52,977 bases of DNA, taken from Patescibacteria group bacterium. Its GTDB lineage: Bacteria; Patescibacteriota; Gracilibacteria; Peribacterales; Peribacteraceae. Shown in pieces: positions 878 to 44,563 of this stretch. The position numbers and the translations under genes are program-made. Position 1 is the first letter of the stretch. The number at the start of each line of letters is the position of its first letter. The notes below the pieces were generated by a model that saw only the letters and a program-made list of their open reading frames with translations, had not been told where the DNA came from and did not search any database. The stretch covers positions 1 through 52,977 of the forward strand of contig JBDRFD010000009.1 in NCBI GenBank assembly GCA_043819035.1. Direction: 5' to 3'.

Positions 878-1010
878 AAAAACTCAGTGGCGAGGAATAC
901 TATCTGCATTCCAGATATTTACAAATATATTGGCATAAAAAAGGACCCAGCTGCACGATGGCGGCCAAAACCTTGCTTGCCGGCCAAAGCCTTGGCAATG
1001 GCTGGGTGAA

Positions 1011-3219: not shown

Positions 3220-3948
3220 GTGAATACGATTCTCCTTTGTTTACACGGCTGGGGCGGCTCAAAAGAATCGTTCACAGAGCTGCTTCGTGAGCTCGAAGGA
3301 ACTGACATTCAAATACTCACCCCAGACCTTCCAGGTTTCGGAACTGAACCAGAACCCGATCGCCCTTGGACAGTTGATGATTATGCACAGTGGGTAGAGG
3401 AATGGACCAAGAATAAATCAAGTCAAATGTTAAATGTTAACTGTCAACTGTTGCTTTTAGGCCATTCTCATGGCGGCCGCATCGCCATCAAACTAGCAAC
3501 CAGAGGAAATATGAAAATTGATCATCTCTATCTCTGCGCAGCAGCTGGCATCAAGAGCAAGAAAACTGTTAAACGATCAATAGGACTAACATTCGCCAAA
3601 GTCGGAAATTCAATCCTCTCCATCCCTGGATTACATCTACTCAAACCAATCGGAAGAAAAGTTCTTTACAAGGCATTACGCGTGCACGACTACGAACACG
3701 CCTCCCCGCTCATGCAGCAGACAATGCAGAACGTGACGAAGGAAGACTTGCGTCCCTTGCTATCAAACATTACCGTTCCAACCGACATCTTCTGGGGAGA
3801 AGAAGACACGATGACGCCGATTGAAGATGCACACATCATGCAAGAAGAAATTCAAGGAAGCTCCCTGCATACCTATCCAGGAGTACGTCACCGTGTGCAT
3901 AGGGATAGAGCAAAAGAGATTGCGCGAGTTATTCAGAATACCCTATGA
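3220..3948 (+). CDS. alpha/beta-fold hydrolase
   Basis: GTG start. N-terminal HGWGGS motif, nucleophile elbow GHSHGG, and C-terminal His (GVRHRVH). 242 aa. Confidence 0.75.
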   Translation: MNTILLCLHGWGGSKESFTELLRELEGTDIQILTPDLPGFGTEPEPDRPWTVDDYAQWVEEWTKNKSSQMLNVNCQLLLLGHSHGGRIAIKLATRGNMKIDHLYLCAAAGIKSKKTVKRSIGLTFAKVGNSILSIPGLHLLKPIGRKVLYKALRVHDYEHASPLMQQTMQNVTKEDLRPLLSNITVPTDIFWGEEDTMTPIEDAHIMQEEIQGSSLHTYPGVRHRVHRDRAKEIARVIQNTL

Positions 3949-4183
3949 GATTATATTGTCTCATATCGAGTTTGCTACCTCCTAAATGAAGATTATAAAA
4001 GAGGCATGAACATCATCACATATACGAAAAACATCGATGCAAGGATAAACCCTGAAACGACATCCCTAAGATTGAAATCTTTTTCCATTTGGAATTGGAT
4101 AAGAAAATAAATCTTATTATTATGCCTTAATTCCCCACATATTACAATAACCAACCACTTGCAATATTATAAATTTGTCCTTT

Positions 4184-4246
4184 AGTATGTCATCGTGTCC
4201 ACAGGGGTAAGGCCAGAGAGATTGCTGAGGTTATTAGAAAATCTGA
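4184..4246 (+). pseudogene. relic copy of the 3' end of the upstream hydrolase gene
   Basis: 4191-4246 reads RVHRGKAREIAEVIRKSE versus RVHRDRAKEIARVIQNTL at 3890-3945. Roughly three quarters of nucleotides match by eye. There is no upstream ORF body. Confidence 0.5.
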
Positions 4247-4395
4247 ACCGCAGATTTCTTGAACATACGGTTGTTCTAATTTATCTATCATCTTCGATAT
4301 CTGCCTGCCCTTTTGAAGTCCAGCCTGCCCCTCGTAACCAAGAGGCGAAGTGGGGAGGCAAAGGAGGGCGTCATCTGCGCTATCTGCGGTTCAGA
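4242..4395. repeat. inverted-repeat-bounded element directly upstream of the MurF-like gene
   Basis: TCTGAACCGCAGAT (4242-4255) is perfectly complementary to ATCTGCGGTTCAGA (4382-4395). The interior contains the GAGGCGAAGTGGGG motif shared with the tRNA-Lys repeats. Confidence 0.5.
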
Positions 4396-4418
4396 AATCA
4401 TAAGCTACAATATCCCAC

Positions 4419-5957
4419 ATGAACCCCACCTTCCTCGCCCTCCTCACTACTGCGGCCTCTCTTTCTCCACTCATTACATTTGCCTCACTCTGGCAGATCA
4501 AGGAGTGGCGCACCGATCGTTTGCGTGAACATCTAAGAAGTGAAGGACTACTCAGACAACTATTCGGAATTCTGAGACCTGCCACCCTTGGTTTCTTTGG
4601 ATTCCTTGGTTTCCTTGGATTCCTTTCCAGGGACTTGTGGCCCATCGCAACACTTGCCGGTTACCTCGCTCTCAGCGCAATCCAAATCATCCTCCATCGA
4701 CATCCCAAACCTGTCTGGACGAAGAAAGCAATGACGCTTGTCACAACGGCACTATTACTCACATTCCTCACAACGATCTCCTACAAGCTGCAAGCTGCAA
4801 GTTTTCAATTAGTTGTGACTCCTCTTCTTCAACCCTTCTATCTTTTTATAGCTTGGATCTTGTGGTCACCAACTGATAAGTACCTCAAAGCACGCATAAT
4901 GTACCGGGCACAAAAACTTCGCATGGATCGCCCCGAATTGAATGTCATCGGAATCACAGGAAGTGTGGGAAAGAGTACAACCAAAGAGCTCCTGGCGCAC
5001 ATTTTGGAAGAGAAGCACCCACTCACCACACCCGATCACGTGAACACAGAAATGGGTGTATCACAGTGGTTACTCAGCACATTACCAAAAAATCCTGAAG
5101 CAGAAATACTCATTGTAGAAATGGGCGCCTATCAATCGGGTGAAATCGCACTCCTCTGCTCTATCACTCAGCCAACCATGGGTGTGGTGACCTTCATTGG
5201 TACACAACACATTGCCCTCTTTGGTTCACAGGAGGAACTATGCCAGGCAAAAGGTGAGCTGGTCGCTGCCCTACCGGATAATGGCTCCGCATTTCTTAAT
5301 AGTGACAGCGCGTTATGCAATGATCTCAAAGAACTCTGTGCGTGTCCGATCACCACTATCGGAACTGGCGGCGTTTCAGACATCGAGGCGTTTGATATTG
5401 AAGAAACTCCAAACGGTATTCAATTCCGCCTCAGTTCTACCTCCTTTTTTGTTCCTCTCCACGGAACCCATAACGTAACAAACGTCCTCTTGGCCATCGC
5501 TGTTGCAGAAAAACTTGGCATGGATCGATCAGCTATTGCACAGAAGTTGAAAAGTTACCGTCCCGCCCTCCATACCTTCTCCGTGCGTGAAGAGAGAGGA
5601 GTGACGATTCTCGACGATACGAACAACGCAAGTCAGGCGAGTTTCAAGGCGGCACTCGCGTGGGCCAAATCTCAACCTGCAGAGAATAAGATTCTTCTGA
5701 CGAGTGGCTTAATAGAGCTCGGCGATGCTCAGGATCGCACACACACAGAACTCGGTACACTCTCGGCGGGAATCTTTGACCGTGTCGTTTTTACACACAG
5801 AAAAAGTGCTCGCAGTTTCGCACGTGGCTATGGCCAGGACATCGAAATCTTTACAAAGTACTCAGAAAAAGTAGATCCGGATTCACTTTTGGTCTGCGTT
5901 GGAAGAATGTCCACGAGCATTATCGAGAAACTACTTCCCAAAATTTCTGAACCTTGA
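4419..5957 (+). CDS. murF: MurF-family Mur ligase (UDP-MurNAc-peptide D-Ala-D-Ala-adding type) with N-terminal multi-TM domain
   Basis: P-loop VIGITGSVGKSTTKE and the MurF-like DDTNNAS motif. The first ~170 aa form 4-5 hydrophobic helices instead of the usual soluble domain 1. Confidence 0.6.
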   Translation: MNPTFLALLTTAASLSPLITFASLWQIKEWRTDRLREHLRSEGLLRQLFGILRPATLGFFGFLGFLGFLSRDLWPIATLAGYLALSAIQIILHRHPKPVWTKKAMTLVTTALLLTFLTTISYKLQAASFQLVVTPLLQPFYLFIAWILWSPTDKYLKARIMYRAQKLRMDRPELNVIGITGSVGKSTTKELLAHILEEKHPLTTPDHVNTEMGVSQWLLSTLPKNPEAEILIVEMGAYQSGEIALLCSITQPTMGVVTFIGTQHIALFGSQEELCQAKGELVAALPDNGSAFLNSDSALCNDLKELCACPITTIGTGGVSDIEAFDIEETPNGIQFRLSSTSFFVPLHGTHNVTNVLLAIAVAEKLGMDRSAIAQKLKSYRPALHTFSVREERGVTILDDTNNASQASFKAALAWAKSQPAENKILLTSGLIELGDAQDRTHTELGTLSAGIFDRVVFTHRKSARSFARGYGQDIEIFTKYSEKVDPDSLLVCVGRMSTSIIEKLLPKISEP

Positions 5958-6015
5958 TTCACACGATTAAAAAGATTACTTGATGAATCCTGTCCATCCA
6001 GTAATCATGTAAATC

Positions 6016-7287
6016 ATGGTTCAGACAACAAATGGATCACTAATCATTACAATGCCTATCCTTCCCATCCACCACACTTTCGCCCCGCACATCGATGCAC
6101 GATATGTGCTACGAACACTCACAATCCTCCTCGCACCATGTAAATGGCGTTCGGGAAAGAGTAAGAAAATCCTTTCGCAAGAACTGAAGCAAAGACTCAG
6201 TGCAGATGTCTATCTCTTTTCCTCCGGACGTGAAGCGCTATGCACACTATTGCGCGCACTTAAGCTCAATAACGGCGAAGAAGTAGTCGTACAAAGCTAT
6301 ACCTGTGTAGCTGTACCCAATGCAATCCATTCCGCAGGCGGTGTGCCGATCTACGCCGACATTGATCGTGAAACGTTGAACCTAACCTCAGAGACTGTTG
6401 AAGAAAAAATTACCCAGCATACCAAGGCAGTCATCTGCCAGCACACATTCGGCATTCCCTCTCCAACCAGTGAGCTCAGAGAGCTTTGTGACAGACACGG
6501 TCTCCTTCTGATTGAAGACTGTGCGCACATAATCCCTGATCAACAAGGACCTGAATCGATCGGACAGCACGGTGACTTCGTCTTCTACAGTTTCGGGCGT
6601 GATAAAGCCGTTTCCGGTATTACCGGTGGTGTCCTCCTCTCCAGAAAGAGCGATATTTCCCTGAAACTCAACGAGGAAATCAAACGAGCAGTTCCTTTCA
6701 GTCACTTCACCATTCTGCGATATCTCACCTATCCGCTCGTGTACTTCATTGCACGACCATTCTATGGGCTCTTCCTCGGAAAAGCATTTTTGTATCTCTT
6801 AAAGAAGCTTAAATGGATGGTTCCGGTGCTGACCATACAAGAAAAAGAGGGGCATCAGTCCCCCATTACTCATCAACTTCCTAACGCTTTAGCATTTTTG
6901 GTGATCGGGCAATTTAAACGTTTAAATATTATTAATGATCATCGACGAAAGCTGACGAAATTCTACTTAGAAGAAGGAACAAAACACAACTGGCCACTTC
7001 TTGCCGGAATCACATCCGACCTTCCGCTCCAGAAGTTCCCTCTCTTCGTCCGCAATGCAGGAGACATTCGCAGGCAGCTCAAGAAAAAAAATATTCATCT
7101 TGACGATGGCTGGACCGGCTGCGTGGTCTGCCCTGCAACTATCGACCTCGATCCGACGAATTACGTTCCTGGGAGTGACCCAGAAGCAGAAGCTGCTTGT
7201 GAGCTGATACTGTCGCTGCCTACACATCCGACGATGACTCTGAGACAAGCTCGAGAAATGTCTAGACAACTTAACAAGCTCTTGTAG
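6016..7287 (+). CDS. DegT/DnrJ/EryC1/StrS-family PLP-dependent aminotransferase-like protein
   Basis: VVVQSYTCVAVPNAI..PIYADID, KAVICQHTFG, LIEDCAHI, and FYSFGRDKAVSG (candidate PLP Lys). The start is uncertain (alternative ATG at 6052). Confidence 0.65.
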   Translation: MVQTTNGSLIITMPILPIHHTFAPHIDARYVLRTLTILLAPCKWRSGKSKKILSQELKQRLSADVYLFSSGREALCTLLRALKLNNGEEVVVQSYTCVAVPNAIHSAGGVPIYADIDRETLNLTSETVEEKITQHTKAVICQHTFGIPSPTSELRELCDRHGLLLIEDCAHIIPDQQGPESIGQHGDFVFYSFGRDKAVSGITGGVLLSRKSDISLKLNEEIKRAVPFSHFTILRYLTYPLVYFIARPFYGLFLGKAFLYLLKKLKWMVPVLTIQEKEGHQSPITHQLPNALAFLVIGQFKRLNIINDHRRKLTKFYLEEGTKHNWPLLAGITSDLPLQKFPLFVRNAGDIRRQLKKKNIHLDDGWTGCVVCPATIDLDPTNYVPGSDPEAEAACELILSLPTHPTMTLRQAREMSRQLNKLL

Positions 7288-7312
7288 AATCTAGGTTCTT
7301 AAAGACGCATCA

Positions 7313-7585
7313 ATGCTAATTCCAAATCAACCATCTTTGGCTGAAATTGCTGCTATTGTTGATGGAATGGCAATATTAAACAAAGATTGTATGCGAGAAC
7401 CTAGTGGAACAGTGAATCGAACAATACAAATGGGTCAGAAGCTAGCCATAAACCAATTAAGAAAGTGCTTAGTATCCAAACTAGGCTTAAGTAGAGACGT
7501 AGATCAGGCAGAGGCTATCTGTTATCTAATGCACGCATTAGAAGCTTTAGAATCACCTTCCTTACTTGAGGTATCCATAAGGTAA
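7313..7585 (+). CDS. hypothetical protein (90 aa)
   Basis: The ORF fills the gap between two same-strand genes. No motif recognised. Confidence 0.3.
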   Translation: MLIPNQPSLAEIAAIVDGMAILNKDCMREPSGTVNRTIQMGQKLAINQLRKCLVSKLGLSRDVDQAEAICYLMHALEALESPSLLEVSIR

Positions 7586-7595
7586 GATACTTCCA

Positions 7596-8603
7596 ATGAC
7601 AATTTCCCAAGCCGCTAATCAAGATCAGTGGGATTCCTTCCTCGCTTCCCAGAAGTATTCCCCCTTCCTCCAGAGCTGGACGATGGGCGAAGTGTACAGA
7701 GACATCGGTGAAGAACCGTTGCGACTTGAGATGAGAGAAGGAAATGAATTAGTAGGAATTTGTCAGGCGATTGTGGTTCCGGCGAAGCGCGGCAGACACC
7801 TCGCTGTCCCCTACGGACCTGTCTTAGATGTCAATTGTCAATTATCAATTGTCAATTACCTCTTAGAGGAACTAAAAAAAATCGCATCCAATCATAACTG
7901 CGCTTTTATCCGCCTCAGTCCTTTTTGGACAGTAACTACTTCACACATTGAGGGAACCAAACCTTCCCCACTCCATCTACTTGCTGAACATATTTGGTAC
8001 TTGGATTTAAAAGGAAAAACCGAAGACGATCTTATGAAGAACATGCGTCAAAATCACAGAAACCTCATTCGCCGAGCACAAAAGGAAGGCGTGGAAGTAA
8101 TTGCATCAACTAATCCAACCCAAGACATAAATGAATTCTTCCGACTTTATGATGAAACAAGAAAGCGCCACCACTTCGTCCCCTATCCAAACAACTTCAT
8201 TACTTCACAGCTTAAGCACTTCTCAACTCGCAACGAATGTACGCTTTACCTCGCAAAATATCAGGGCGAAGTCATCGCATCCTCGCTACACATGCACTTT
8301 GGTAGCGAGACGAGCTACCACCACGGTGCAAGTACACATAAGTATCCGAAAATTCCCGCAAGTTATCTGCTTCAGTGGACTGCAATCACAGATGCAATGA
8401 AGCGAGGTGATCATATGTACAACTTCTGGGGCATCGCACCTGAGGAAGAAAAGAAGCACCCTTTCCGTGGGGTAACACTATTCAAAACCGGATTCGGTGG
8501 AGAACTCCTGGAGCTTCAGCACTGCAGCGACCTGCCGCTCAAACCTTCTTACCACGCAACACGTGCGTTTGAGATGTGGAGGAAGTGGAGACGGGGATTT
8601 TAG
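7596..8603 (+). CDS. FemAB-family peptidoglycan interpeptide-bridge peptidyltransferase
   Basis: FLQSW.WGEV-type N-terminus, NMRQNHRNLIRRAQKEGVEV, YHHGAS..YLLQW..I..A...G...YNFWGI, and FK.GFGG. Confidence 0.75.
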   Translation: MTISQAANQDQWDSFLASQKYSPFLQSWTMGEVYRDIGEEPLRLEMREGNELVGICQAIVVPAKRGRHLAVPYGPVLDVNCQLSIVNYLLEELKKIASNHNCAFIRLSPFWTVTTSHIEGTKPSPLHLLAEHIWYLDLKGKTEDDLMKNMRQNHRNLIRRAQKEGVEVIASTNPTQDINEFFRLYDETRKRHHFVPYPNNFITSQLKHFSTRNECTLYLAKYQGEVIASSLHMHFGSETSYHHGASTHKYPKIPASYLLQWTAITDAMKRGDHMYNFWGIAPEEEKKHPFRGVTLFKTGFGGELLELQHCSDLPLKPSYHATRAFEMWRKWRRGF

Positions 8604-11574: not shown

Positions 11575-13272
11575 TCACATGCGATCGGGAACGCGGATAG
11601 TCAAAATCTCCGCACCCGACTTAAGGACAGACGCAGTGAGAGATGTCAGACAAAGACGAAGAGTACGAGCCGGCTCCTCTGATTTGAGAATGGGCTCTGC
11701 ATTGTAGAACGCGTTGTATTCCTGACAGAGGGCGAAGAGATAATTTGTGAGAATGTGTGGCATGCGAGATTCACGAGCTTCTGCCAAAACCTTTTCGAAC
11801 TGCAATAGCACATTCACCAAACTTCGTTCTTTGTCTGTGAGATTTTCGACCTCATCAGGAACCTCCACTTCCTCTTTGTCCGCTTTTCTAAGAACAGACT
11901 TCGCACGCGCGTGCGTGTACTGCAGGTATGGCGCCGAGTTTCCGTCAAAACTTAAAAACTTGTCCCAATCGAAGACAATGTCCATTTTTCGATTCTGGCT
12001 CAATACTCCATATGTCAGTGCCCCGATACCCATCATTTCCGCCAAATCCTCCCGATCATCTGTCTGAATGTCATCCCCATGTTCCTCTATCACACTGTCT
12101 GCACGTTTAACCGCTTCATCGAGAACGTCTTCGAGCTTCAAAACCGTTCCAGAACGCGTACTCATTTTCTTGTCACGGAAACTCATACGGCCAAACACCG
12201 TATGCTCAAGCTCAGGAAGTTCCCACTCAAGTTGCCGGCATACTTCGAATAGCTGCTCGAAATGCAGGCTCTGTGCACGATCGACAACATAGTAGATCGC
12301 TTGCGGATGGTACTTATCTATCCGATAACGGATCATCGCCAGATCGCGTGTGGAGTAGAGCGTGGACCTGTCGCTTTTACGCACCAAATACGGAGGCAGG
12401 TTCAGCTCTTGGGGAAACTCAACAATGAGCGCACCCTCTTCACCTTCAATAAATACTCCCTTCTCCAGACCTTCTTCGATAATCGGTTGCATTTTGTCCT
12501 CATAAAAGCTCTCCCCTGTTTCTTCATCGAGTTCTATATGCAACCTCTCGTAGAGCCGCGTGAGATGCTCTCTGCTGACACCGACAACATCTTCCCAGAA
12601 TTTGCGCATTTCTTTATCTCCTTCCTCAAGCCTGCGAAATGCATCCCGCGCTTCATCCTCCAACGAAGGATCGTTCTGAGATTCTGCGTGAAACTTAACA
12701 TATAACGTGAGTAGTTCATCGATGGAACAATTTCCTGCCTGTTTGCCCTCTCCCCACCTGGAGAATGCAACCGCGAGCTTTCCAAATTGCGTCCCCCAAT
12801 CACCGGGATAACTCCACCCGATCACATTATCTCCATTGTGCTTATATATATTGATGAGTGCCTGACCTATGACATGCGGAAGAATGTGGTGAATACCAAG
12901 GGGCTTGGCGATATTCGGTCCACAATAATCGAGAATGACCGGCGGCTCCTTCCTCTTCACTTTCGCAGTACAAGCTTCGCGTGTGTTGTTGAGCTGCTTT
13001 ATCAAGTATTCAGGCGAGAGCCACACATTGACGTACCCCGCACCCGCTACTTCTGCGTTTTCGATGCCTTTTTCCTTTCTTAATTCCTCCGCAAGAACCT
13101 TGGCAATCTCCAAAGGATTTTTTTTGAGATCCTTGGCGCATTGAAGAGCAACTGCCGTTGATAGGTCACCATGTCCTTTTGCTCCGGCATGCTTCCACTC
13201 AACATTGACCGATGGTGCATCAAAATGCTTCTTGAGGATACTCTGGGCCATCGTTGTAAGTGCATCATACAT
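11575..13272 (-). CDS. argS: arginine--tRNA ligase
   Basis: Class I HIGH-like GIHHILPH, an MSTRSG (KMSKS-like) motif, a DALR-type anticodon-binding C-terminus ending in ..RM. 565 aa. Confidence 0.9.
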   Translation of the reverse strand: MYDALTTMAQSILKKHFDAPSVNVEWKHAGAKGHGDLSTAVALQCAKDLKKNPLEIAKVLAEELRKEKGIENAEVAGAGYVNVWLSPEYLIKQLNNTREACTAKVKRKEPPVILDYCGPNIAKPLGIHHILPHVIGQALINIYKHNGDNVIGWSYPGDWGTQFGKLAVAFSRWGEGKQAGNCSIDELLTLYVKFHAESQNDPSLEDEARDAFRRLEEGDKEMRKFWEDVVGVSREHLTRLYERLHIELDEETGESFYEDKMQPIIEEGLEKGVFIEGEEGALIVEFPQELNLPPYLVRKSDRSTLYSTRDLAMIRYRIDKYHPQAIYYVVDRAQSLHFEQLFEVCRQLEWELPELEHTVFGRMSFRDKKMSTRSGTVLKLEDVLDEAVKRADSVIEEHGDDIQTDDREDLAEMMGIGALTYGVLSQNRKMDIVFDWDKFLSFDGNSAPYLQYTHARAKSVLRKADKEEVEVPDEVENLTDKERSLVNVLLQFEKVLAEARESRMPHILTNYLFALCQEYNAFYNAEPILKSEEPARTLRLCLTSLTASVLKSGAEILTIRVPDRM

Positions 13273-14373: not shown

Positions 14374-14467
14374 TATTATTATTACTAAACAGTACTAACA
14401 ATAATGCAACTTCGCTCAATAGAAGAATTTGCACTTTTCCGCTATAATAAAAGGATTTATTGAACCT

Positions 14468-16780
14468 ATGGCTCAAAAAAGCGCCAATACTCTGCCGGCA
14501 CAACAGATTAGGCTCAGCCGTGTGCTCGTTGCCGCGATTGATGACCTTCTTGGGCTGCAACGCAGGGTTGAAAATACGCTGAAGGCGGCAAAACTTGCGA
14601 AGAGGCAAAAATTGACCACTGAGGATCAGGAGGAACTGAAACGTTACGAAGAAGGACTGCAGAAAACGCTCGATATTATTGCGCCTGCGGGAATGGAGAT
14701 TAAACCGGATGAATTCATTCTCAACGATCTGCATGGTCGAGTCCTCTATGCACTGAACTGGCCGCATTACATCTATCCAAACTGGCTCTCGGAGGAAATC
14801 AACTTCGATGCACACATGAATATCAGTCAGTTTATCTATCCTGCAGACAATAAGACGATAATGCGGATGCTCAGGAAAAAGGTGACGCAAATGCGTTCAT
14901 CTATTCACATGCTGGAACAACGAGGTATTGTTCGTGATCCATCGCTGGAAGCGGCACTGCAAGATGCGGAGGAGCTCAGAGACCTTCTCACACGTGGACG
15001 TGAAAAGCTCTTCCAAATCGGACTCTATGTGACGATTTACTCAGATGATCAGGAGAAGCTCAAGAAACTCCAGACAGATATTGAATCGCTTCTCGGCGGA
15101 AAGCTGGTCATTACCAAACCTGCTTTTATGCAAATGGAACATGGCTGGATTTCCACACTCCCATTCGGTATCGATGAACTGGAAGTAAACCGCAATATGA
15201 ATACATCGCCTGCAGCTGCATGCTTCCCTTTCTCCAGCTCCGACCTAACCGACGATCACGGTATCCTTTACGGTATTAACCGGCACAACGACAGTCTCGT
15301 GATCTTTGACCGCTTCGATCTGCCAAATGCAAATGCAACTGTGTTCGCTACATCCGGAGCAGGTAAATCCTTCGCGGTGAAGCTAGAAATCCTACGATCG
15401 TTAATGTTTGACACCGATATGTACGTAATAGACCCGGAAAATGAGTACCGCGAGCTGTGTGAAACGGTGGATGGAACATACATTCCGATTTCTTTGGAGA
15501 GTTCCAACCGTATTAATCCGTTCGACCTTCCTAAAGCAGTCCGAGGAGAGGAAGCATCCGTTGGTGAAACACTCCGCGCATCGGTCATCAACCTGCACGG
15601 ACTCTTTAAGCTGATGCTGGGAACACTTACTCCTTCTGAAGACGGTATTCTTGATAAGGCAATCTTAGACACGTATGCGCTGAAAGGTATTTCACTCACA
15701 ACAGATAATCATGCTGAAAAAGAAGTTCCGACTCTATCGGACCTTGTCGATGTTCTACTTACAACGGATGGAGGTGAAAACATGGCGAAGACACTTTCGA
15801 AGTACACAGAAGGAAGTTACGCAGGACTCTTCGATAAACCGACAAATGTGCAGATTGAAAACCAGATGGTTGTCTTCCAGATTCGTGATTTGGAAGATCA
15901 ACTCCGACCCATCGCGATGTATGTGGTTATCAACCTAATTTGGAACCGCATCAGAGCAGACTTCAAGAAGCGCATGCTCGTGATCGATGAAGCATGGAGT
16001 CTGATTCAGCATGAAGACTCTGCGCGATTCCTCTATGGCTTGATCAAACGTGCGCGTAAGTACTACCTTGGTGTCACGACTATTACTCAAGATGTGGAAG
16101 ACTTCGTGAATTCTCCGTATGGAAAACCGATTATCACAAATGCATCGCTCCAGATTCTTTTCAAGCAATCCCCTAGCGCGATCGATAATCTCCAGAAGAT
16201 CTTCTATCTTACGGAGGGTGAAAAGTATCTGTTACTGGGATCCGAAGTGGGTCAAGGGCTTTTCTTCGCCGGAAACAGGCACGTGGCAATTCAAATCATC
16301 GCGAGTCCGCAGGAGGCCCGGATCATAACCACAAATCCCGAAGATATCTTGGCAAAGAAGGAATCCAAGAGACTTGCTGCAATAACTGATGAAAAGAACA
16401 AGGGTGGATCTTCCGATCGCACGCCCGCTCCACCAAAGAAAGAAACCGCACAAAGTACAGGCGATGCAGAAGCAAAAACGGAAAATAAACATGAACCACA
16501 ACCGGAACAGAATGAGCAACATCAAGAATCTGAAACCAAAGAAGCATCAATCGAAGATAAAGTGCTCCCGCTTCAAGATTCACTCAAGGAACATGAGCCC
16601 ATCAAGGAACTTCCGGTGGAAGAAACGGAAAAGACACAGAAGAAAACTAAAAAAGAAGGTATCCGAAAGCTCAATAAAAATATCACGCTAAAACAAGCAA
16701 CTGCACCACCTCCCGGGAGGAAAAAGAAAGAAGAAGAACTATTGGAGGCTGAAGAAGAGAAAAGTGAAGACGAAGAGTAA
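14468..16780 (+). CDS. VirB4/TrbE-type type IV secretion ATPase (Gram-positive conjugation-like architecture) with long Lys/Glu-rich tail
   Basis: IAPAG..I-type N-domain, FPF motif, Walker A FATSGAGKSF, Walker B MLVIDEAWSL. The last ~140 aa are low-complexity K/E/Q-rich. Confidence 0.8.
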   Translation: MAQKSANTLPAQQIRLSRVLVAAIDDLLGLQRRVENTLKAAKLAKRQKLTTEDQEELKRYEEGLQKTLDIIAPAGMEIKPDEFILNDLHGRVLYALNWPHYIYPNWLSEEINFDAHMNISQFIYPADNKTIMRMLRKKVTQMRSSIHMLEQRGIVRDPSLEAALQDAEELRDLLTRGREKLFQIGLYVTIYSDDQEKLKKLQTDIESLLGGKLVITKPAFMQMEHGWISTLPFGIDELEVNRNMNTSPAAACFPFSSSDLTDDHGILYGINRHNDSLVIFDRFDLPNANATVFATSGAGKSFAVKLEILRSLMFDTDMYVIDPENEYRELCETVDGTYIPISLESSNRINPFDLPKAVRGEEASVGETLRASVINLHGLFKLMLGTLTPSEDGILDKAILDTYALKGISLTTDNHAEKEVPTLSDLVDVLLTTDGGENMAKTLSKYTEGSYAGLFDKPTNVQIENQMVVFQIRDLEDQLRPIAMYVVINLIWNRIRADFKKRMLVIDEAWSLIQHEDSARFLYGLIKRARKYYLGVTTITQDVEDFVNSPYGKPIITNASLQILFKQSPSAIDNLQKIFYLTEGEKYLLLGSEVGQGLFFAGNRHVAIQIIASPQEARIITTNPEDILAKKESKRLAAITDEKNKGGSSDRTPAPPKKETAQSTGDAEAKTENKHEPQPEQNEQHQESETKEASIEDKVLPLQDSLKEHEPIKELPVEETEKTQKKTKKEGIRKLNKNITLKQATAPPPGRKKKEEELLEAEEEKSEDEE

Positions 16781-16782
16781 TT

Positions 16783-16836
16783 CAGAATTGAAAATGCAGA
16801 ATTAAGAATTAATTCTGAATTCTTAATTCTTAATTC
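16783..16836. terminator. heptamer-word hairpin (AGAATTA/AGAATTG vs AATTCTT)
   Basis: Complementary 7-nt word arms between the convergent VirB4-like (+) and DHH (-) gene ends. Confidence 0.6.
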
Positions 16837-18159: not shown

Positions 18160-19041
18160 ATGCCCACTACGAAAAGTATCATCTTCTGCGACACACCGAA
18201 GTTTGCGGTCCCATCACTTGAAGCGCTCATTGCAGACTCTGCATTCTCAGTTGACCTCGTAATCACTCAGCCGGATAAGCCTGTCGGTCGCAAGCAAGAA
18301 CTAACATCCCCACCCGTAAAAAAATGCGCGCAATCACATGGAATTTTTGTGGCACAACCTGATAATCTCAACTCCGATTTATCCGCTCTAGAAAGCCATA
18401 ATCCTGACTTTCTAGTTACGGTTGCTTACGGTCAAATTCTAAAAGAACCAATCCTGGATCTTCCAAACATTGCGAGCGTGAATATCCATCCATCCCTCCT
18501 CCCCCACTGGCGGGGTGCCTCACCCATTCAGCATGCGATACTTGCCGGTGATCATGAGACAGGTGTAACTCTTCAAGAGATGACCGACGAACTTGATGCC
18601 GGTCCGATTCTCGCACAAGTAACAACTGTGATCGAAGAACGAGAGACTGCAACATCCCTCCACGATCGCTTAAGCACGCTCAGTGCTCAACTCCTTATAG
18701 ACACTCTGAAGAAACCTCTTGATCCAAAACCTCAAGATGAATCGCAGGTCACGTTTTGCCAGAAGCTCACGCGTAAAGATGGCGAAGTTGATCTATATGC
18801 GATGACTGCTGAAGAAATTGATCGGCACGTTCGTGCGCTTGTTCCTTGGCCCGGGGTTCGAGGATTTTTTAATGGAACTGAACTCAAACTCATTGAGACA
18901 TCACTGAAGGAAACTGCTGACTCTATTTCTGTCCACTGTGCAGGAGGTTCGATACTTCATCTTGTCCGGCTCCAACCACCCGGAAAAAAACTGATGATGG
19001 GGAGGGAATGGAAACGAGGAATGCATAGAAAGGAAACCTAA
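18160..19041 (+). CDS. fmt: methionyl-tRNA formyltransferase
   Basis: ATG at 18160 within ORF 17974-19041. IIFCDTPKFAVPSLEAL, ITQPDKPVGRK, NIHPSLLPHWRGASPIQHAIL.GD.ETGVT. Confidence 0.9.
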   Translation: MPTTKSIIFCDTPKFAVPSLEALIADSAFSVDLVITQPDKPVGRKQELTSPPVKKCAQSHGIFVAQPDNLNSDLSALESHNPDFLVTVAYGQILKEPILDLPNIASVNIHPSLLPHWRGASPIQHAILAGDHETGVTLQEMTDELDAGPILAQVTTVIEERETATSLHDRLSTLSAQLLIDTLKKPLDPKPQDESQVTFCQKLTRKDGEVDLYAMTAEEIDRHVRALVPWPGVRGFFNGTELKLIETSLKETADSISVHCAGGSILHLVRLQPPGKKLMMGREWKRGMHRKET

Positions 19042-19151
19042 GAATCCGAAGAAACCAAGGAATCCGAAGGGATGTAAAACAACTCCTTCGTTTTCTTTGG
19101 TTTCTTTGGTTTCCCTTCGGCCTGAGGCTCAGGGCCGAATGGCCTCGGATT
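19042..19151. terminator. hairpin built from 9-nt words (GAATCCGAA GAAACCAAG ... / TTCTTTGGTTTC)
   Basis: Complementary arms plus an outer stem GAATCCGAAG / CCTCGGATTC. It lies between convergent fmt (+) and the PUR-like gene (-). Confidence 0.6.
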
Positions 19152-21952: not shown

Positions 21953-22297
21953 TTATCCGATACCACCCACAAATGCGCCAATAAACGTGATAATCGCTTC
22001 CGCAGCAATAGCCAGAACGAGCCCGACGAGTGCTGCAATAATGATCTTCTTGGCATCTTCTTTGCCCTGATCGTTCCCTCCGGATGCAATAAGTTTGATA
22101 GCTCCATAAACGATTGCAATCACCGCAGCTCCGGCTATCACAATGGCAAAGAAGTTTCCGATGCGGGCCGCAAGTACCACTGCAAAAGCGCTTCCCGCCG
22201 AACAGTCCGGATGAAGCTTTTCGCAATACACATCAAAAGCATTTGCATGCGCTTTTTCGATTATCAGGCCGACAAGAGCAGAGAAAGCAATCATCAT
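21953..22297 (-). CDS. VirB2/TrbC-like (T4SS pilin-like) small membrane protein
   Basis: Signal peptide (..EKAHA), a Cys pair, then two TM helices separated by a short charged loop (ASGGNDQGKEDAKK). There is a 4-nt overlap with the upstream gene. Confidence 0.5.
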   Translation of the reverse strand: MMIAFSALVGLIIEKAHANAFDVYCEKLHPDCSAGSAFAVVLAARIGNFFAIVIAGAAVIAIVYGAIKLIASGGNDQGKEDAKKIIIAALVGLVLAIAAEAIITFIGAFVGGIG

Positions 22298-22872
22298 AAA
22301 GGAAGATTCATAACAGAAACCACCAGCGCCTGAGCGACATTAACAACAATCGCGCCAATCACCGCCCAGATGATAATGCCACGGGCTTTGGTGAATTCGT
22401 CACTGCTGCCGCGGGCAAAAGCCATGCGAAAACCGGACGCAACCATCATAAGCGCAAAAACCGCGTTGAAGAGGACCACCATCGCATTCACTGCATATCC
22501 CATAAGGTGGAAGACGGGATCACTGCTTCCCATCAAACCACCGAATTGCGCACCAACAAAAGCCGCAATGCTTTGCGCGAGGAGTGTGATACCCAATCCC
22601 ACAAGCGCATAAACAATGGACATCTTCCCCTTTTGTATCTGGCCTTCTTCTCCCAGGCTCGTAAGCATTAGCGCACCGCCAACAACCACGAAAACAACAG
22701 ACAATCCTGCGGCAACGGAAACCAGTAAGTTCGCAACGGGGCCGACTGCGATTGCAAGAACATTAGCAGGTCCGCACCCGCCGACATACGCGCACGGATT
22801 AGCCATCGCAGAAGCGGAGAGAGGAAAAACACCAACCGTGAAACCGATCTGGAGCGGGATAAGTTTTTTCAT
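22294..22872 (-). CDS. tandemly duplicated VirB2/TrbC-like pilin-type membrane protein
   Basis: Signal peptide and a Cys pair (CAYVGGC). Two successive TM-loop-TM units (..SLGEEGQIQKGKM.. and ..ARGSSDEFTKARG..). ATGA overlaps at both ends. Confidence 0.5.
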   Translation of the reverse strand: MKKLIPLQIGFTVGVFPLSASAMANPCAYVGGCGPANVLAIAVGPVANLLVSVAAGLSVVFVVVGGALMLTSLGEEGQIQKGKMSIVYALVGLGITLLAQSIAAFVGAQFGGLMGSSDPVFHLMGYAVNAMVVLFNAVFALMMVASGFRMAFARGSSDEFTKARGIIIWAVIGAIVVNVAQALVVSVMNLPL

Positions 22873-23345
22873 ACAAAGAAACTTGCATTGAGGAAGTTAA
22901 GTATCACACCAACAAAAACCAGTGCAATCAGCCCGATAATCGCCCACTTGATGTGCTCGATCCATTTGCTTCGTCCGCTCTGGTCTCCTCCAAAAACAAT
23001 AATCATGCCGCCGCTCACCAGTACCCACAGCGTTACAAGACCTACTGCAACAAGAACAAGCCAATTCCACGCTCTTTGTACATATACTAAAAATGGCAAG
23101 ACGCCCCCTACAGCTACAGGAACATTGGCATCACCTGCAATCGGCTCGATGAGTGGAACAGCATTCTGTTTTTGTTCGACATGATGTCTATTAAAATATA
23201 TACATCCTTCAATTTCACATTGTTCTTTTGATACTCCTTCTGGACAAATTCCATCAGGATGAGCACAAGCAAAAGCCATTTCAGAACTTGTGAAGCTAAC
23301 GAGTATCCCCAGCAATACGCCGGTGATGATTAGACGCAAAGACAT
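22869..23345 (-). CDS. VirB2/TrbC-like pilin-type membrane protein with Cys-rich ectodomain
   Basis: ATG at 23345 (MSLRLIITGVLLGILV signal). Six-Cys segment CAHPDGICPEGVSKEQCEIEGC. The C-terminal TM-loop-TM reads VSGGMIIVFGGDQSGRSKWIEHIKWAIIGL. Confidence 0.5.
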   Translation of the reverse strand: MSLRLIITGVLLGILVSFTSSEMAFACAHPDGICPEGVSKEQCEIEGCIYFNRHHVEQKQNAVPLIEPIAGDANVPVAVGGVLPFLVYVQRAWNWLVLVAVGLVTLWVLVSGGMIIVFGGDQSGRSKWIEHIKWAIIGLIALVFVGVILNFLNASFFV

Positions 23346-23566
23346 CAAAGTATTATACCTTAAATTTGGCTTTATTTCGAGCTGAAAATGGGCATCTATA
23401 AGGCAAGAGAATGACAAAGAATCTTGCATCGAGGTTCAATTCTACGTAGCATTCTCGGGCTCCTTCACACACGGACAGCGCTTCCACCTTCGTCCCGTAT
23501 GCGCGGGACTACGGTTGACAGGTTCTCTGCGGGAGATGGATGCGATATACCGTTCATTTCAATCAT

Positions 23567-23643
23567 GCGGATGTAGCTCAGTTGGCTAGAGCGTCGCCTT
23601 GCCATGGCGAAGGTCGCGGGTTCGACCCCCGTCATCCGCTCCA
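23567..23643 (+). tRNA. tRNA-Gly (GCC), CCA encoded
   Basis: Cloverleaf traced by hand: acceptor GCGGATG/CATCCGC, anticodon arm TCGCC-TTGCCAT-GGCGA, T arm GCGGG-TTCGACC-CCCGT, discriminator U. Confidence 0.85.
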
Positions 23644-23735
23644 ACCTGCGCAGCAGGTTGCCGACCGAAGCTCGCCCGAAGGCGAGCGCAGGTTGGCTCT
23701 TCAACGAAGACCTGCTGCTACGGTTGTCAAGCCAT

Positions 23736-23809
23736 GCGGGATTAGTACAGTGGTAGTACGCGAGCTTCCCAAGCTTGTAACGCGGGTTCGATTCCCGTAT
23801 CCCGCTCCA
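23736..23809 (+). tRNA. tRNA-Gly (CCC), CCA encoded
   Basis: Acceptor GCGGGAT/ATCCCGC, anticodon arm CGAGC-TTCCCAA-GCTTG, T arm GCGGG-TTCGATT-CCCGT, discriminator U. Confidence 0.85.
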
Positions 23810-24308: not shown

Positions 24309-24441
24309 GCTCCAGCCTTCGCCCCTGGAGGGAGTGCTACAAGAAACAAGTTCGTAGAAGTTTTTGCATACACTGAGACGGGGCTACGGCTGGCGGGCCA
24401 ACCAATTTACTGTGATATTTACGAAGCGAAGGCTGTCCGCC
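24309..24441 (+). repeat. 133-bp direct repeat, copy 2
   Basis: See 23803-23936. It is preceded by TTCCGAATAAGCTCCACTATCTCGCTCCAGCC, which recurs at 24879-24910. Confidence 0.85.
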
Positions 24442-24522
24442 GAAGCCTTGGCGGAGGCGGACACTTCACTCTCATGAGGTCGCTTCGCTTCGGCAGGCCA
24501 TTCGGTCAAAGTTCATCCCATT

Positions 24523-24774: not shown

Positions 24775-25134
24775 AAGGGGGCGTCATGCTACATGACATT
24801 CGGATTATTTCAATGAGAAATTTGCTCATTTTCATTTACCCGATCTATCTATACACCTAACGAGAGTGTTCGAACCAGTTCCGAATAAGCTCCACTATCC
24901 CGCTCCAGCCTACGCGAAGCGTAGGCTGCCAACCGAAGCGCGAAGCGCGTAGGTTGGCTCAACTCAAACTAGCTCGCTTCGCTACGGCTGGCAGGCCAAC
25001 TTTAATCTACGCAGCAAATTTCCACCCGCAGGCGAGCGCAGGTTGGCCTTTCAACGATGAACAATGAACTTCTAACACTTAAATTAAAAGAGTAACCACT
25101 TCATTGCTTGATTTGTTAATTGTTAACTGTTACC

Positions 25135-28017: not shown

Positions 28018-28088
28018 AGTGAATAGTGAATAGTGAATAGTGAAAAATGCCCCTCTTATATTACACACTATTAACTTTTAACTATTCA
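28018..28088. repeat. heptamer-word hairpin (GTGAATA x3 ... CACTATT/AACTATTCAC)
   Basis: The left arm GTGAATAGTGAATAGTGAATAGTG is imperfectly complementary to CACTATTAACTTTTAACTATTCAC. It sits immediately upstream of the tatD start. Confidence 0.55.
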
Positions 28089-28267
28089 CTGTTAGTTCTT
28101 GCTTGAGTTTCTTCTGCATCAACAACATCTGCAAAATGATTACGAGTACATTGTTGAATGAAACCTCGAAAATCACCCGGTGATGGTGCTTCTCTCTGAC
28201 ACCTCCGGCATAGAATTGAATCAGTAGTTACAAGACACTCGTCTGATCGGCCACAGTTAACTTCCAT
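28082..28267 (-). CDS. possible small Cys-rich protein (61 aa)
   Basis: The Cys pattern C-x5-C...C-x2-C suggests a zinc ribbon. Weak support. Confidence 0.25.
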   Translation of the reverse strand: MEVNCGRSDECLVTTDSILCRRCQREAPSPGDFRGFIQQCTRNHFADVVDAEETQARTNSE

Positions 28268-33156: not shown

Positions 33157-33210
33157 AGGTAATCATTGTAGCAGAATCATATTTTTTGGGTGTTTTGAAA
33201 TAATAAAAAA

Positions 33211-33306
33211 GAAACCAAAGAAACCAAGGAATCCAAAGAAACCAAAGGAGAAGTGAAACAGTGCCCATTGGTTTCTTAGGTTTCTTTGGTTTCCTTGGAT
33301 TCCTTG
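33211..33306. repeat. hairpin of 9-nt words (GAAACCAAA GAAACCAAG GAATCCAAA ... / complement) in a divergent gap
   Basis: The arms are complementary. It lies between the ruvB start (33156, -) and the next + strand gene start, so it is not in a terminator position. Confidence 0.6.
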
Positions 33307-33310
33307 CCCA

Positions 33311-33907
33311 TTGCGGTACAATCCCCCCGTGAGCAAGACGCTCGTCACCCTCGGCCTCATCGTCGTCCTCGTGGGACTTGGCACCGCCGATGCCATCTTT
33401 ACGGAAGCAAGACTTCCTTCGATAGAGCCTGCGGATCAAGAGCCTGTCATCAGGCCTCCCAGCCAACCAACGGTGACTCAAAAATCGTATGGTCCCAACG
33501 TACTGGAAACAATCGTCTCTCAGCGCTTCACATTCAGTAACACCGGTGAGTCCGGTTTGATCGAGCGCATCATCACTGATGGAACGAAAGTGGAATCCCG
33601 CACGCTCATCAAAGATGGAGACCGCAGCGGCTTGATTGCCTGGACGGATTCTCCGCGTGTAAAGGTGTACTTCCTAGCATTAAAGGAGGCACTGCACACG
33701 TCTTTCTCGCCTCAGGTGCAAGATCTCATCGATGAAACTCAGCGGGAACCCGGACGCCCGATTCAGAACCTTCTCACCTTCTTCGACCCCGCGATTAGTG
33801 AAGACCGTCTCGTTTTCATCCGTGTCCGAGAGAGGCTCTTTGAGTTCCATATCGCCAAGGATAAGGACGATGTGTTGTTTGGGTTGATTGAGGAGCTGAC
33901 AAAGTAG
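33311..33907 (+). CDS. secreted/membrane-anchored hypothetical protein
   Basis: ORF from TTG 33311 (alternative GTG at 33329). N-terminal hydrophobic LVTLGLIVVLVGLGTADA. Confidence 0.45.
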   Translation: MRYNPPVSKTLVTLGLIVVLVGLGTADAIFTEARLPSIEPADQEPVIRPPSQPTVTQKSYGPNVLETIVSQRFTFSNTGESGLIERIITDGTKVESRTLIKDGDRSGLIAWTDSPRVKVYFLALKEALHTSFSPQVQDLIDETQREPGRPIQNLLTFFDPAISEDRLVFIRVRERLFEFHIAKDKDDVLFGLIEELTK

Positions 33908-36579: not shown

Positions 36580-37611
36580 TTACATGAGGATATTTTTCAC
36601 ATCATTAAACGTTTCAACCCTCACCAATCTCGATCTCAGCTCCTTCGCCCCGTCAATTCCTTTGACGTAACTGGCCAGATGTTTACGCATTTCGAGCATT
36701 CCCCTTCTCTCTCCTTTTAATTTAACCGCGAGTTCGCAGTGTTCGATGATCAGAGGAATTTTTTCCTCGAAGCTTAGTTGTTCGATGGTTGGAATGAACT
36801 TCGAAGAATCGTCTAACGTCCAACGTCTAACGACGCGAGATACTAGACGTTTGACGTTAGACTTTGGACTTCTCAGCGCCTCACACACATCTTTCATTAT
36901 CCATGGATTTCCGAATGTGGCGCGCCCGATCATTACACCATCTAGGTTTCCGAGTTTTTCGACTGCAACTTCTGCTGAAGTCACATCGCCATTTCCGATC
37001 ACCGGCACTGAAACTTCCTTCTTCAGTTCATAAATCGGTTTCCAATCTGCTTCTCCTCCATACTTTTGAGCATAAGTTCTGCCATGAATCGCCAGCGCAT
37101 CAGCACCGGCTTCTATGAGCTTCGAGCAGAACGTTATGAGTTGATCCGGAGATTCCCACCCTAAACGTGTCTTCACGCTTACAGGGATCTTCACCGCCTC
37201 TTTTGTTGCCTGAACTAATTCTGCCGCAAGTTGCGGCTCACGCATCAATGCAGAACCGTGACACGATGACGTGACACGTGCTGCGGGGCATCCCATATTT
37301 ATATCTATTCCATCCGCACCCATTTCCTCGACAATTTTAGCAGCCGAGAGGAAATTCTCCGGCTTCTTCCCAAAGACCTGCACAATGAAGGGGTGCTCTA
37401 GTTTTGGATCGAAGTTCATCATACCCATCGTCTTCTTCGCTCCATAATGAATAGCATCGGTACTCAAGAATTCGGAATAGACAATCACCTCTGGCGCTAG
37501 CTTTTTGATGAGCTGGCGGTACGCCGCGTCCGTTACTCCCGCCATGGGAGCCAGTGCAACAATGGGCCGGTCTGTTGTACTCCAAGCAAACATGAGTGAA
37601 GAGACTATCAA
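36580..37611 (-). CDS. dus: tRNA-dihydrouridine synthase
   Basis: LAPMAGVTD.AYR, NMGCPA, the FMN-binding TIM-barrel pattern, and a C-terminal helical domain. Confidence 0.85.
   Translation of the reverse strand: MIVSSLMFAWSTTDRPIVALAPMAGVTDAAYRQLIKKLAPEVIVYSEFLSTDAIHYGAKKTMGMMNFDPKLEHPFIVQVFGKKPENFLSAAKIVEEMGADGIDINMGCPAARVTSSCHGSALMREPQLAAELVQATKEAVKIPVSVKTRLGWESPDQLITFCSKLIEAGADALAIHGRTYAQKYGGEADWKPIYELKKEVSVPVIGNGDVTSAEVAVEKLGNLDGVMIGRATFGNPWIMKDVCEALRSPKSNVKRLVSRVVRRWTLDDSSKFIPTIEQLSFEEKIPLIIEHCELAVKLKGERRGMLEMRKHLASYVKGIDGAKELRSRLVRVETFNDVKNILM
36810..36863. repeat. 54-nt heptamer-word hairpin embedded in frame in dus
   Basis: CGTCTAACGTCCAACGTCTAACG ... TAGACGTTTGACGTTAGAC. The 19-nt arms match at 18 of 19 positions. 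It encodes an 18-aa Arg/Val-rich insert (..KSNVKRLVSRVVRRWTLDD..). Confidence 0.7.
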
Positions 37612-37630: not shown

Positions 37631-37680
37631 TAGTGTTAAATGTTAATAGTTAACTGTTAAGAGTCTCGCGTAAGCGAGAC
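37631..37680. repeat. GTTAA-word heptamer run plus GTAA-tetraloop hairpin upstream of dus
   Basis: TAGTGTTAAATGTTAATAGTTAACTGTTAAG followed by GTCTCGC-GTAA-GCGAGAC. Confidence 0.5.
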
Positions 37681-39433: not shown

Positions 39434-39606
39434 AAAAGGTTATAGGTGATAGGTTTAATAGGTTTGGGTTATAGGTTAAAAGGGAAGAGGTTGTGTATTT
39501 TGATACCAAGAAAACCTTTTCCCTAAACACCTCTTCCCCAAACCCTGCCTGCCGGCAGGCAGGCTAATCACCTAAAACCTATAGCCTTTTAAGGTCTATC
39601 TATGCA
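39434..39606 (+). mobile_element. MITE-like hairpin element, copy 2
   Basis: AAAAGGTTATAGGTGATAGGTTTAATAGGTTTGGG ... CCTGCCTGCCGGCAGGCAGG ... CACCTAAAACCTATAGCC. Its arms are self-complementary. Confidence 0.7.
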
Positions 39607-44562: not shown

Positions 44563-44563
44563 T

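Follow-up and report, generated by a model that had tools for sequence, protein, structure and literature searches.

Heptamer repeat arrays and hairpin mini-elements in coding and intergenic DNA of Candidatus Peribacteria: a probable lineage-wide repeat system

This study provided evidence that the 7-nt (heptamer) repeat arrays lying in frame inside three genes of a Candidatus Peribacteria contig, which encode an alpha/beta hydrolase, a MurF-like Mur ligase and a FemAB-family peptidyl transferase, probably belong to a lineage-wide system of heptamer arrays and small hairpin mini-elements that is filtered by selection in coding DNA. The coding tracts are then best read as tolerated passengers that make protein loops evolve fast, a reading to which we give a probability of about 0.72. 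The window, meaning the whole stretch of DNA that was analysed, is a 53-kb contig of a metagenome-assembled genome (MAG) within the candidate phyla radiation (CPR), and labels such as L066 denote the related Peribacteria loci used for comparison. The array events seen among these genomes were 7-nt tandem duplication, whole-unit changes, and the replacement of an entire array or patch; they show a mutational or mobility process, specific to this lineage, by which arrays are continually made, altered in size, homogenised and replaced.

The genes and coding tracts under study are the following, with arrays as detected by Tandem Repeats Finder (TRF) and lengths in amino acids (aa).

3220–3948, plus strand: alpha/beta hydrolase gene, 242 aa (Pfam Abhydrolase_1/6, Hydrolase_4).
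3425–3452, plus strand: heptamer array in the hydrolase gene, in frame, with units AAATGTT, AAATGTT, AACTGTC and AACTGTT.
4419–5957, plus strand: gene for a MurF-like Mur ligase with a hydrophobic N-terminal membrane domain, 512 aa (Pfam Mur_ligase_M/C; hydropathy).
4586–4627, plus strand: 9/18-nt array in the MurF-like gene, in frame, encoding LGFFGFLGFLGF (predicted transmembrane (TM) segment 48–69).
4783–4803, plus strand: heptamer array in the MurF-like gene (CAAGCTG x2.6), read as ACAAGCT, GCAAGCT and GCAAGTT and encoding YKLQAAS.
6016–7287: DegT aminotransferase gene, between the MurF-like and FemAB genes (Pfam).
7596–8603, plus strand: FemAB-family peptidyl transferase gene, 335 aa (Pfam FemAB; AlphaFold 2 (AF2) model, pLDDT 92.5).
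7829–7857, plus strand: heptamer array in the FemAB gene, in frame (GTCAATT x4.1), encoding VNCQLSIVNY.

The four repeat tracts reported by the initial annotation were all verified at their coordinates and with their peptides, and TRF detected every one of them, with 2.6–4.1 units each and 85–100% matches. The hydrolase array is translated as SQMLNVNCQL, immediately N-terminal to LLLLGHSHGG. The description of these tracts as the same words in three genes stood in part: the units are related, by rotation and by a common TGTCAA, but they are not identical. Specifically, the FemAB unit GTCAATT and the hydrolase tract have TGTCAA in common, the hydrolase AACTGTC/T is a rotation of GTTAACT, the unit of the intergenic array at 1016–1063, and the hydrolase AAATGTT is a rotation of TGTTAAA, the unit of the intergenic array at 37634. 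The proposed link with cell-envelope enzymes appears incidental, since Dus, DegT and GT4 glycosyltransferase genes also carry such arrays; the Dus example lies in the window, as follows.

36810–36866, minus strand: inverted heptamer pair (CGTCTAA x3.3 / GACGTTT x3.1) in the Dus gene, in frame, at an inter-domain linker.

Two side observations concern the same genes. At 3948 the hydrolase gene closes with HRVHRDRAKEIARVIQNTL; an A+T-rich insert (3949–4192) comes next, and a relic of what appears to be the original 3' end of the gene, HRVHRGKAREIAEVIRKSEPQIS, lies at about 4193–4262, approximately 245 nt past the gene end, in agreement with the genuine C-terminus of the L070 hydrolase orthologue. 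The insertion at 3949–4262 looks like one that brought or duplicated a replacement end for the hydrolase gene. On the antisense strand of the FemAB array (7829–7857), the repeated ATTGACA gives the sigma-70 -35 consensus TTGACA every 7 nt, a candidate promoter motif.

The repeat population of the window was estimated with TRF after overlapping rows were dropped, so that the counts are non-redundant. The window holds 18 period-7 and 3 period-14 arrays, against 0.85 and 0.15, respectively, in dinucleotide shuffles; period-7 arrays are thus approximately 20-fold enriched, and 50 kb of E. coli DNA under identical settings gave 0 such arrays. The units also resemble one another: 18 pairs agree with at most one mismatch, compared with 5.9 for random heptamers of the window (P~0.0005), rotation and reverse complement being allowed. 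Where intergenic arrays form inverted pairs, they fold far better than shuffled sequences, with z-scores down to about -6. The arrays outside the three genes include the following.

1016–1063: intergenic heptamer array GTTAACT x6.9 (TRF), self-folding with z -4.3.
16779–16836: inverted heptamer arrays AATTAAG / TTAATTC between convergent genes (TRF), folding with z -3.0.
25053–25132: inverted heptamer pair AACAATG / TTGTTAA.
28018–28094: heptamer arrays AGTGAAT x3.9 and ACTATTA/ACTGTTA, hairpin-forming (TRF; folding).
37634–37664: intergenic heptamer array TGTTAAA x3.9 (TRF).
45592–45642: GACCTGT array (TRF), its unit being also that of the array at 37–74, with a type C mini-element at 45513–45533.

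The arrays extend across the class. The scan with the DegT protein matched 34 genome loci, all of them in Candidatus Peribacteria/Peregrinibacteria MAGs, and the hydrolase–MurF–DegT–FemAB cluster is syntenic across these 34 loci; for the hydrolase gene, synteny is kept in approximately 30 Peribacteria loci. A metagenome scan returned no close relative of the window (best match, 65% aa identity), and a search for exact matches to the DegT protein gave no record. The search with the FemAB protein gave close relatives in L066–L069 (FemAB 94% identical in aa; 98.2% nt identity across 13.5 kb) and further ones in L070–L072 (FemAB 82% aa identity to the window). In 545 kb from 34 Peribacteria genomes, period 7 was the top class with 122 arrays, whereas 28 arrays had period 6, 37 had period 8 and 68 had period 9; it was also the most frequent class of tandem repeat in more than 50 related loci. 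The array density was about 1.2 per kb in non-coding versus about 0.30 per kb in coding DNA (approximately 4-fold), and by count 68% of the arrays fall inside open reading frames (ORFs). Intergenic arrays are frequently inverted pairs that form long hairpins, most arrays have five units or fewer, and each genome has few related unit families. The TGTCAAy family (encoding VNCQLSIV) is found in the FemAB and hydrolase genes of the window, in the hydrolase genes of L070 and L004 and in the MurF genes of L001, L002 and L005, while the AGCTrCA family (SYKLQA) is found in the window MurF gene and in the hydrolase genes of L001 and L002. Units of these two families and of CCCTACG recur at differing sites and in differing genomes.

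The period-7 array lengths, taken from pooled loci (776 kb), are bimodal, with a decay over 14–22 nt followed by a peak at 30–34 nt (mode 32, about 4.6 copies). Many arrays in this peak are perfect, and few arrays exceed about 35 nt, in coding and non-coding DNA alike. Inside ORFs, 52 arrays measure 30–34 nt, versus 17 at 26–29 nt and 9 at 35–39 nt. A frame constraint, by which a native copy plus three units adds 21 nt, would account for this coding peak.

The same sites in orthologous genes carry other arrays. In the hydrolase, the loop that precedes the GHSxGG strand is hypervariable, its length differing by 0 to about 30 residues among orthologues, and its site holds GCTAGAA x4 in L001, TTGTCAA x4 in L004 (LSIVNCQLSIV), CCTACGC x3 in L014, GAAAATG x4 in L017, CACTGAT x3 in L028 and CCTACAA x5 in L034. 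In FemAB, arrays occur right after the conserved PYGP in more than 15 species, with units that include ACAATCA, TTCGAAA, CTCAACC, CTCACAG, CTACCAG, CAACTTT, GGGGTCA and CAATCAC; the segment is hypervariable, with length modes of 23, 26–27 and 28–30 residues in 117 homologues. The second MurF site holds TGTCAAT x5, TTATTGG x4, TTGGGAT x4 or nothing, and in some orthologues CAACTGT arrays interrupted by 30–50-nt inserts. DegT is an additional hot spot for arrays in other species. At the heptamer sites, the array-encoded peptides are entirely unlike between orthologues. The alignments thus showed the repeat-encoded residues at the three heptamer sites to be lineage-specific and variable in length.

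FemAB has further variable positions in the relatives. L001 carries an extra insertion of about 27 residues, ATTDACQSKQSSPLPVGEGSGERANKTTY, after YLPL (about 11900–12000), which the window does not have, and a hot spot after the conserved SPFW motif holds arrays or mini-elements in L006, L010, L041, L050 and L059.

Structural mapping placed the heptamer-encoded residues in loops, on the basis of the AF2 model for FemAB, hydropathy for MurF and knowledge of the fold for the hydrolase. In the FemAB model, residues 78–84 are coil and residues 85–99 helix; the array therefore spans a loop and the helix's first turn. The MurF heptamer tract occupies a short loop (residues 122–129) between hydrophobic TM segments 104–122 and 129–150, and the hydrolase tract presumably lies, as the established fold would have it, in the loop that leads from helix alphaA to the nucleophile strand beta5. 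Compared with Protein Data Bank entry 1vhn, the Dus array pair forms an inter-domain insertion of about 25 aa between residues 251 and 281.

Based on these data, we propose that arrays in coding DNA would persist only where the net length change is a multiple of 3, where the heptamer reading has no stop codon in any of its three frames, and where the array falls in a segment that tolerates it, such as a loop or a linker. Of the four tracts, three appear to fit these filters, namely those in the hydrolase loop, the membrane-domain loop of MurF, and the loop and helix N-terminus of FemAB. The idea that the tracts are repeats which entered coding DNA and were tolerated is therefore supported for the three heptamer sites, since they are lineage-specific, length-variable and placed in loops, and their unit families are also found between genes and elsewhere in related genomes.

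The fourth tract, the 9-nt array in the MurF-like gene, belongs to a different family that also forms two intergenic elements in the window.

19033–19113: intergenic hairpin of inverted 9-nt arrays of the MurF-tract family (dG -41.2, z -6.0; region 19025–19120).
33208–33306: intergenic hairpin of inverted 9-nt arrays of the MurF-tract family (dG -41.7 kcal/mol, z -6.2; region 33200–33312).

Within the window, an 18-mer of the MurF tract is confined to the MurF-like gene and both arms of these two elements (9 matches versus 0.11 expected), and the tract has an exact 20-mer in common with the arm at 33268–33306. The statement that the MurF word is the complement of the intergenic 9-nt family is therefore correct. 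The tract aligns without gaps to the orthologues nearest the window and shows no length variation in close relatives; its DNA is near-identical in L001 and more weakly similar in L002, L004 and L005. As a period of 9 is three times 3, the gain or loss of a unit here cannot shift the frame. This tract is probably an arm-type copy of the intergenic family that now encodes a TM helix of (L/F)GF repeats.

The comparison of close relatives revealed the turnover of arrays directly. Relative to the window, the intergenic GTTAACT array at 1016–1063 is longer by 42 nt (6 units) in L066, which also shows a de novo 7-nt tandem duplication (ACTACTA/ACTACTC in L066) just 3' of a stop codon, and a 7-nt difference (+7 nt) separates the window from L070. 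In L066, which is 98.2% identical, no change affects the hydrolase tract or either MurF tract. Variation in unit number between related strains was not found in the coding tracts of the hydrolase and MurF genes, which are identical in L066–L069, whereas intergenic arrays differ. In FemAB, a patch that includes the array is exchanged as a whole.

7817–7908, plus strand: 90-nt in-frame patch comprising the FemAB array and the following helix, wholly different in L066 between flanks that are 100% identical.

The L066 version of the patch has a weak heptamer periodicity of its own and is like the 'ESGK' loop type of distant Peribacteria, which suggests short-patch recombination with a distant allele. 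In L010 and L059 (94.7% average nucleotide identity), the FemAB arrays are CAACTTT x4.9 and CAGCTAC x4.7, respectively, both perfect and equal in total length; the units differ at the same three of seven positions in every copy, that is, by concerted change. In addition, a 31-nt array in DegT is whole in L010 and absent from L059. Array indels were not seen in the near-identical strain pairs L024/L058, L004/L035 and L018/L049 of other species, a small sample. The indel spectrum of 15 pairs at 75–98% identity showed no clear excess of multiples of 7, with 9 indels of 7 nt, while 6-nt indels numbered 22 and 8-nt indels 15, although alignments within arrays are unreliable at such divergence.

The second component of the proposed system consists of mini-elements, GC-rich hairpins of about 21–30 nt that are often nested in arrays or stand beside them. 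Three families (A, B and C) recur across genomes and in the window, where the following copies were located.

975–1010, plus strand: type A mini-element (containing GCCGGCCAAAGCCTTGGCAATGGCTGG), beside the array at 1016.
24430–24465, plus strand: second copy of the type A mini-element.
45513–45533, minus strand: type C hairpin mini-element, near the GACCTGT array.
47799–47812, minus strand: type B mini-element with a conserved 14-nt loop, TTCGACTGCGCTCA, and a 5-bp stem.

Mini-elements inserted in phase split arrays in L028, L015, L002, L029 and L040/41/59; in L028 the arrangement is AATCTTC x2, [CCTGCCTCGCCGGCAGGCAGG], AATCTTC x2.5. The 30-nt inserts in the L015 hydrolase array and the L002 MurF array are 77% alike and belong to the type A family, and in L029 the core TTCGGCTCCGCTCA is found in the hydrolase array and the FemAB array alike. 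Several copies lie in coding sequence and are hence translated. Among 14 copies of type B, covariation (CG/GC/UA) is seen at the three inner pairs of the stem, with a score that 0 of 500 shuffles reached. A 21-nt copy of type A is present in L041 and not in L040, a pair that is 93% identical. A search of Rfam returned no family for the mini-elements or the arrays, and its matches were spurious miRNA hairpins far below threshold. The nested mini-elements show that at least a part of the repeat system is mobile.

Among the other explanations, the one that survives best, although we consider it unlikely, is an idea attributed to Mrazek (2007): replication slips locally, the replicase having an inherent preference for 7 nt, and arrays arise in place and neither disperse nor move. 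It agrees with the de novo duplication of non-repeat sequence 3' of the stop codon in L066 and with the variation of intergenic arrays by whole units; the concerted change between L010 and L059 would also fit a contraction followed by re-expansion. Heptamer simple sequence repeats are, moreover, over-represented in many bacteria, as far as this is cited in PMC4692102. However, unit families recur at unrelated sites and genes of related genomes beyond what random heptamers give, and an entire perfect array is there in one close relative and missing as a block from the other. Within a gene, an array growing from one copy would have to go through frameshifted intermediates, and the nested mini-elements reveal a system that is at least partly mobile.

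The initial annotation had suggested that the tracts could act as a slipped-strand on/off switch, so that the slippage of one heptamer would toggle the hydrolase, the MurF-like ligase and FemAB as phase-variable contingency loci. We regard this as improbable. The contingency tracts known from other bacteria are longer and perfect. The likeness to such loci lies in the heptanucleotide tandem repeats, whose unit is indivisible by 3 at three of the four sites (3425–3452, 4783–4803 and 7829–7857), and in copy numbers that change in the lineage (window versus L066, +7 and +42 nt; window versus L070, +7 nt). In L029, the FemAB frame changes exactly at an array combined with a mini-element (6528–6579, an AGCCGTC array containing a 20-nt type B mini-element). 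This is the sole broken allele seen, and it could be a pseudogene or null allele, an off-phase allele or an assembly error.

The difference from contingency loci, which have long perfect tracts and on/off isolates, is that the present tracts are short and degenerate and preserve the frame. They have only 2.6–4.1 copies at 85–100% identity, and the hydrolase and MurF arrays are the same in the closest relative despite its changed intergenic arrays. One frame is read throughout in about 47 of the 48 FemAB orthologues and in every hydrolase and MurF orthologue, so that nearly all orthologues from more than 50 loci are in frame, and the protein clusters on record contain no length variants. The imperfections themselves are informative: C3445 in the hydrolase is precisely the base that avoids an in-frame TAA, which argues for purifying selection for an open frame, and the G-to-A change at 7844 in FemAB is synonymous (TTG to TTA). 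Similar arrays also occur in Dus, DegT and GT4 genes and in intergenic hairpins where switching is inconceivable, and the 9-nt tract is incapable of shifting the frame. Therefore, the tracts probably do not work as an on/off switch. In Haemophilus influenzae, by comparison, 7-bp repeats upstream of hmw1A and hmw2A are phase-variable (PMC8262952, PMC12721329).

Less probable still is that the sites are under diversifying selection or form a recombination hot spot, with loop alleles exchanged by short-patch recombination and the repeats a by-product. The 90-nt FemAB patch, swapped between identical flanks for a version like that of distant lineages, and the hypervariable FemAB loop of the 117 homologues speak for such an exchange. 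Nevertheless, there is no obvious reason why FemAB, the hydrolase and Dus, as housekeeping enzymes of the cytoplasm or membrane, should be under diversifying selection. The explanation also accounts neither for the 7-nt periodicity of the DNA nor for the intergenic copies, and the window has no reverse transcriptase or template repeat of a diversity-generating retroelement (DGR).

Stacked 7-bp target-site duplications left by the insertion and excision of mini-elements were also considered; they are compatible with the in-phase inserts, but they predict no length peak. Chance, or a need of the proteins for repeated amino-acid motifs, can practically be dismissed: the (L/F)GF-type TM motif of the 9-nt tract is partly conserved in L001–L005, but the shuffles and the E. 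coli control leave no room for chance, the peptides encoded by the heptamers differ wholly between orthologues, and a heptamer array runs through all three frames, so that the periodicity belongs to the DNA and is not a codon-level repeat.

Several points weigh against reading the tracts as passengers of a lineage-wide repeat system. The generating mechanism was not found, a Pfam scan of the ORFs of the 53-kb window giving no transposase, REP-associated tyrosine transposase (RAYT; REP, repetitive extragenic palindromic sequence) or reverse transcriptase. The 30–34-nt peak, strongest in coding arrays, is unexplained by simple slippage, and the scheme of a native copy plus three units fits the FemAB loops only partly, since their modes are 23, 26–27 and 28–30 aa and not 23 and 30 aa. 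The corresponding segment of Staphylococcus aureus FemA is nearly as long and aligns with a single-residue gap; therefore, the FemAB segment has been rewritten and is not a pure insertion. As the 90-nt FemAB replacement reaches past the array, homologous recombination also shapes these sites. The similarity of units within the window may partly come from its A+T-rich composition. Finally, the data are MAG or metagenome consensus sequences, and the population of this species is thinly sampled, in 3–5 assemblies.

Concerning known systems, the heptanucleotide short tandemly repeated repetitive (STRR) sequences of heterocystous cyanobacteria (Calothrix/Nostoc/Anabaena) were reportedly described by Mazel et al. 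in 1990. Their canonical units are CCCCAGT, TTGGTCA and CAACAGT, and to our knowledge their function and origin have not been established. The arrays of Peribacteria would resemble them in being dispersed 7-nt arrays far above chance, with few unit families, a higher intergenic density and a lineage-wide occurrence. They differ in their host (CPR Peribacteria with genomes of about 1 Mb), in their unit sequences and in having mostly five copies or fewer. They also lie in frame at position-conserved hot spots of orthologous housekeeping genes, with concerted turnover of units. The unit AACTGTT is the complement of a CAACAGT-like unit, and the repeats work like STRR sequences but are not the cyanobacterial family itself.

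In Nostoc punctiforme, small dispersed repeats (SDR) nested in tandem heptamer repeats are said to have been found by Elhai et al. in 2008. SDR seem comparable to the mini-elements, which are multi-copy hairpins of 21–30 nt inside heptamer arrays, with compensatory stem changes and presence or absence between relatives. The type B mini-elements differ in their conserved 14-nt loop and freely varying stem and in having copies in coding sequence, and no likeness in sequence would be expected. The intergenic hairpins also recall REP sequences and their paired form (REPIN) as dispersed, multi-copy inverted repeats; unlike in those systems, the hairpin arms are themselves tandem arrays, and no RAYT occurs among the Pfam-scanned ORFs of the window.

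The GGGAATC and GGGGAyT heptamers of Xanthomonas and Nostoc, reported by Rehm et al. in 2015, are G-rich, G-quadruplex-prone single families, and those of Xanthomonas form inverted pairs with a fast turnover of length and sequence at conserved intergenic positions (PMC4692102). A general excess of heptamer simple sequence repeats in bacteria is attributed to Mrazek (2007) in the passage of PMC4692102 that cites it, and the 1990 study by Mazel et al. is likewise cited there. The Peribacteria arrays share with these heptamers the intergenic period-7 excess, the stem-loop inverted pairs and the variation between relatives, but they have varied units, most of which are not G-rich, and many lie in coding DNA. 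No publication tying Peribacteria or CPR to heptamer repeats was found, the literature search being incomplete.

The remaining genes of the window are ordinary CPR housekeeping genes together with genes like those of a type IV secretion system (T4SS). The T4SS-like genes stand among the housekeeping genes at 14429–16780, 22294–23429 and 43936–45382 and comprise a TraG/VirB4-like ATPase, two T4SS pilins, and PrgI-family and TraC-like genes. Five tRNA genes lie at 23567–23809 and 49662–49736: three for tRNA-Gly (GCC, CCC, UCC), the first two in tandem, one for tRNA-Arg(CCG) and one for tRNA-Lys(UUU). An isolated gene for a four-helix bundle like that of 23S rRNA intervening sequences or bAvd (39609–39989, minus strand) is flanked on both sides by repeat arrays (39514–39543 and 40149–40305) and has no reverse transcriptase nearby. 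A DGR, suggested by this Avd-like ORF, was rejected, as the window contains neither a reverse transcriptase nor a template repeat and the FemAB array word has no second copy.

A bolder version of the proposed system can be put forward tentatively. Peribacteria might possess an active, dedicated system of repeat writing or mobility, with arrays of about 30–34 nt and mini-elements with a 14-nt loop, that is mechanistically equivalent to the STRR/SDR of Nostocales and overwrites surface loops with arrays of the same length even in essential genes. As Peribacteria genomes measure only about 1 Mb, a comparison of gene content with Nostocales could pinpoint the responsible enzyme and, if this possibility is true, could solve the origin of bacterial heptamer repeats.

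These findings carry a caution, namely that a non-triplet repeat in an ORF need not mean a phase-variation switch. For annotators and structure predictors, the loops of Peribacteria proteins are partly repeat-derived. The STRR-like syndrome is not limited to large cyanobacterial genomes but pervades an ultra-small CPR class, including the interiors of its housekeeping genes, and Peribacteria therefore offer a second, much simpler system in which to seek the mechanism of heptamer repeats.

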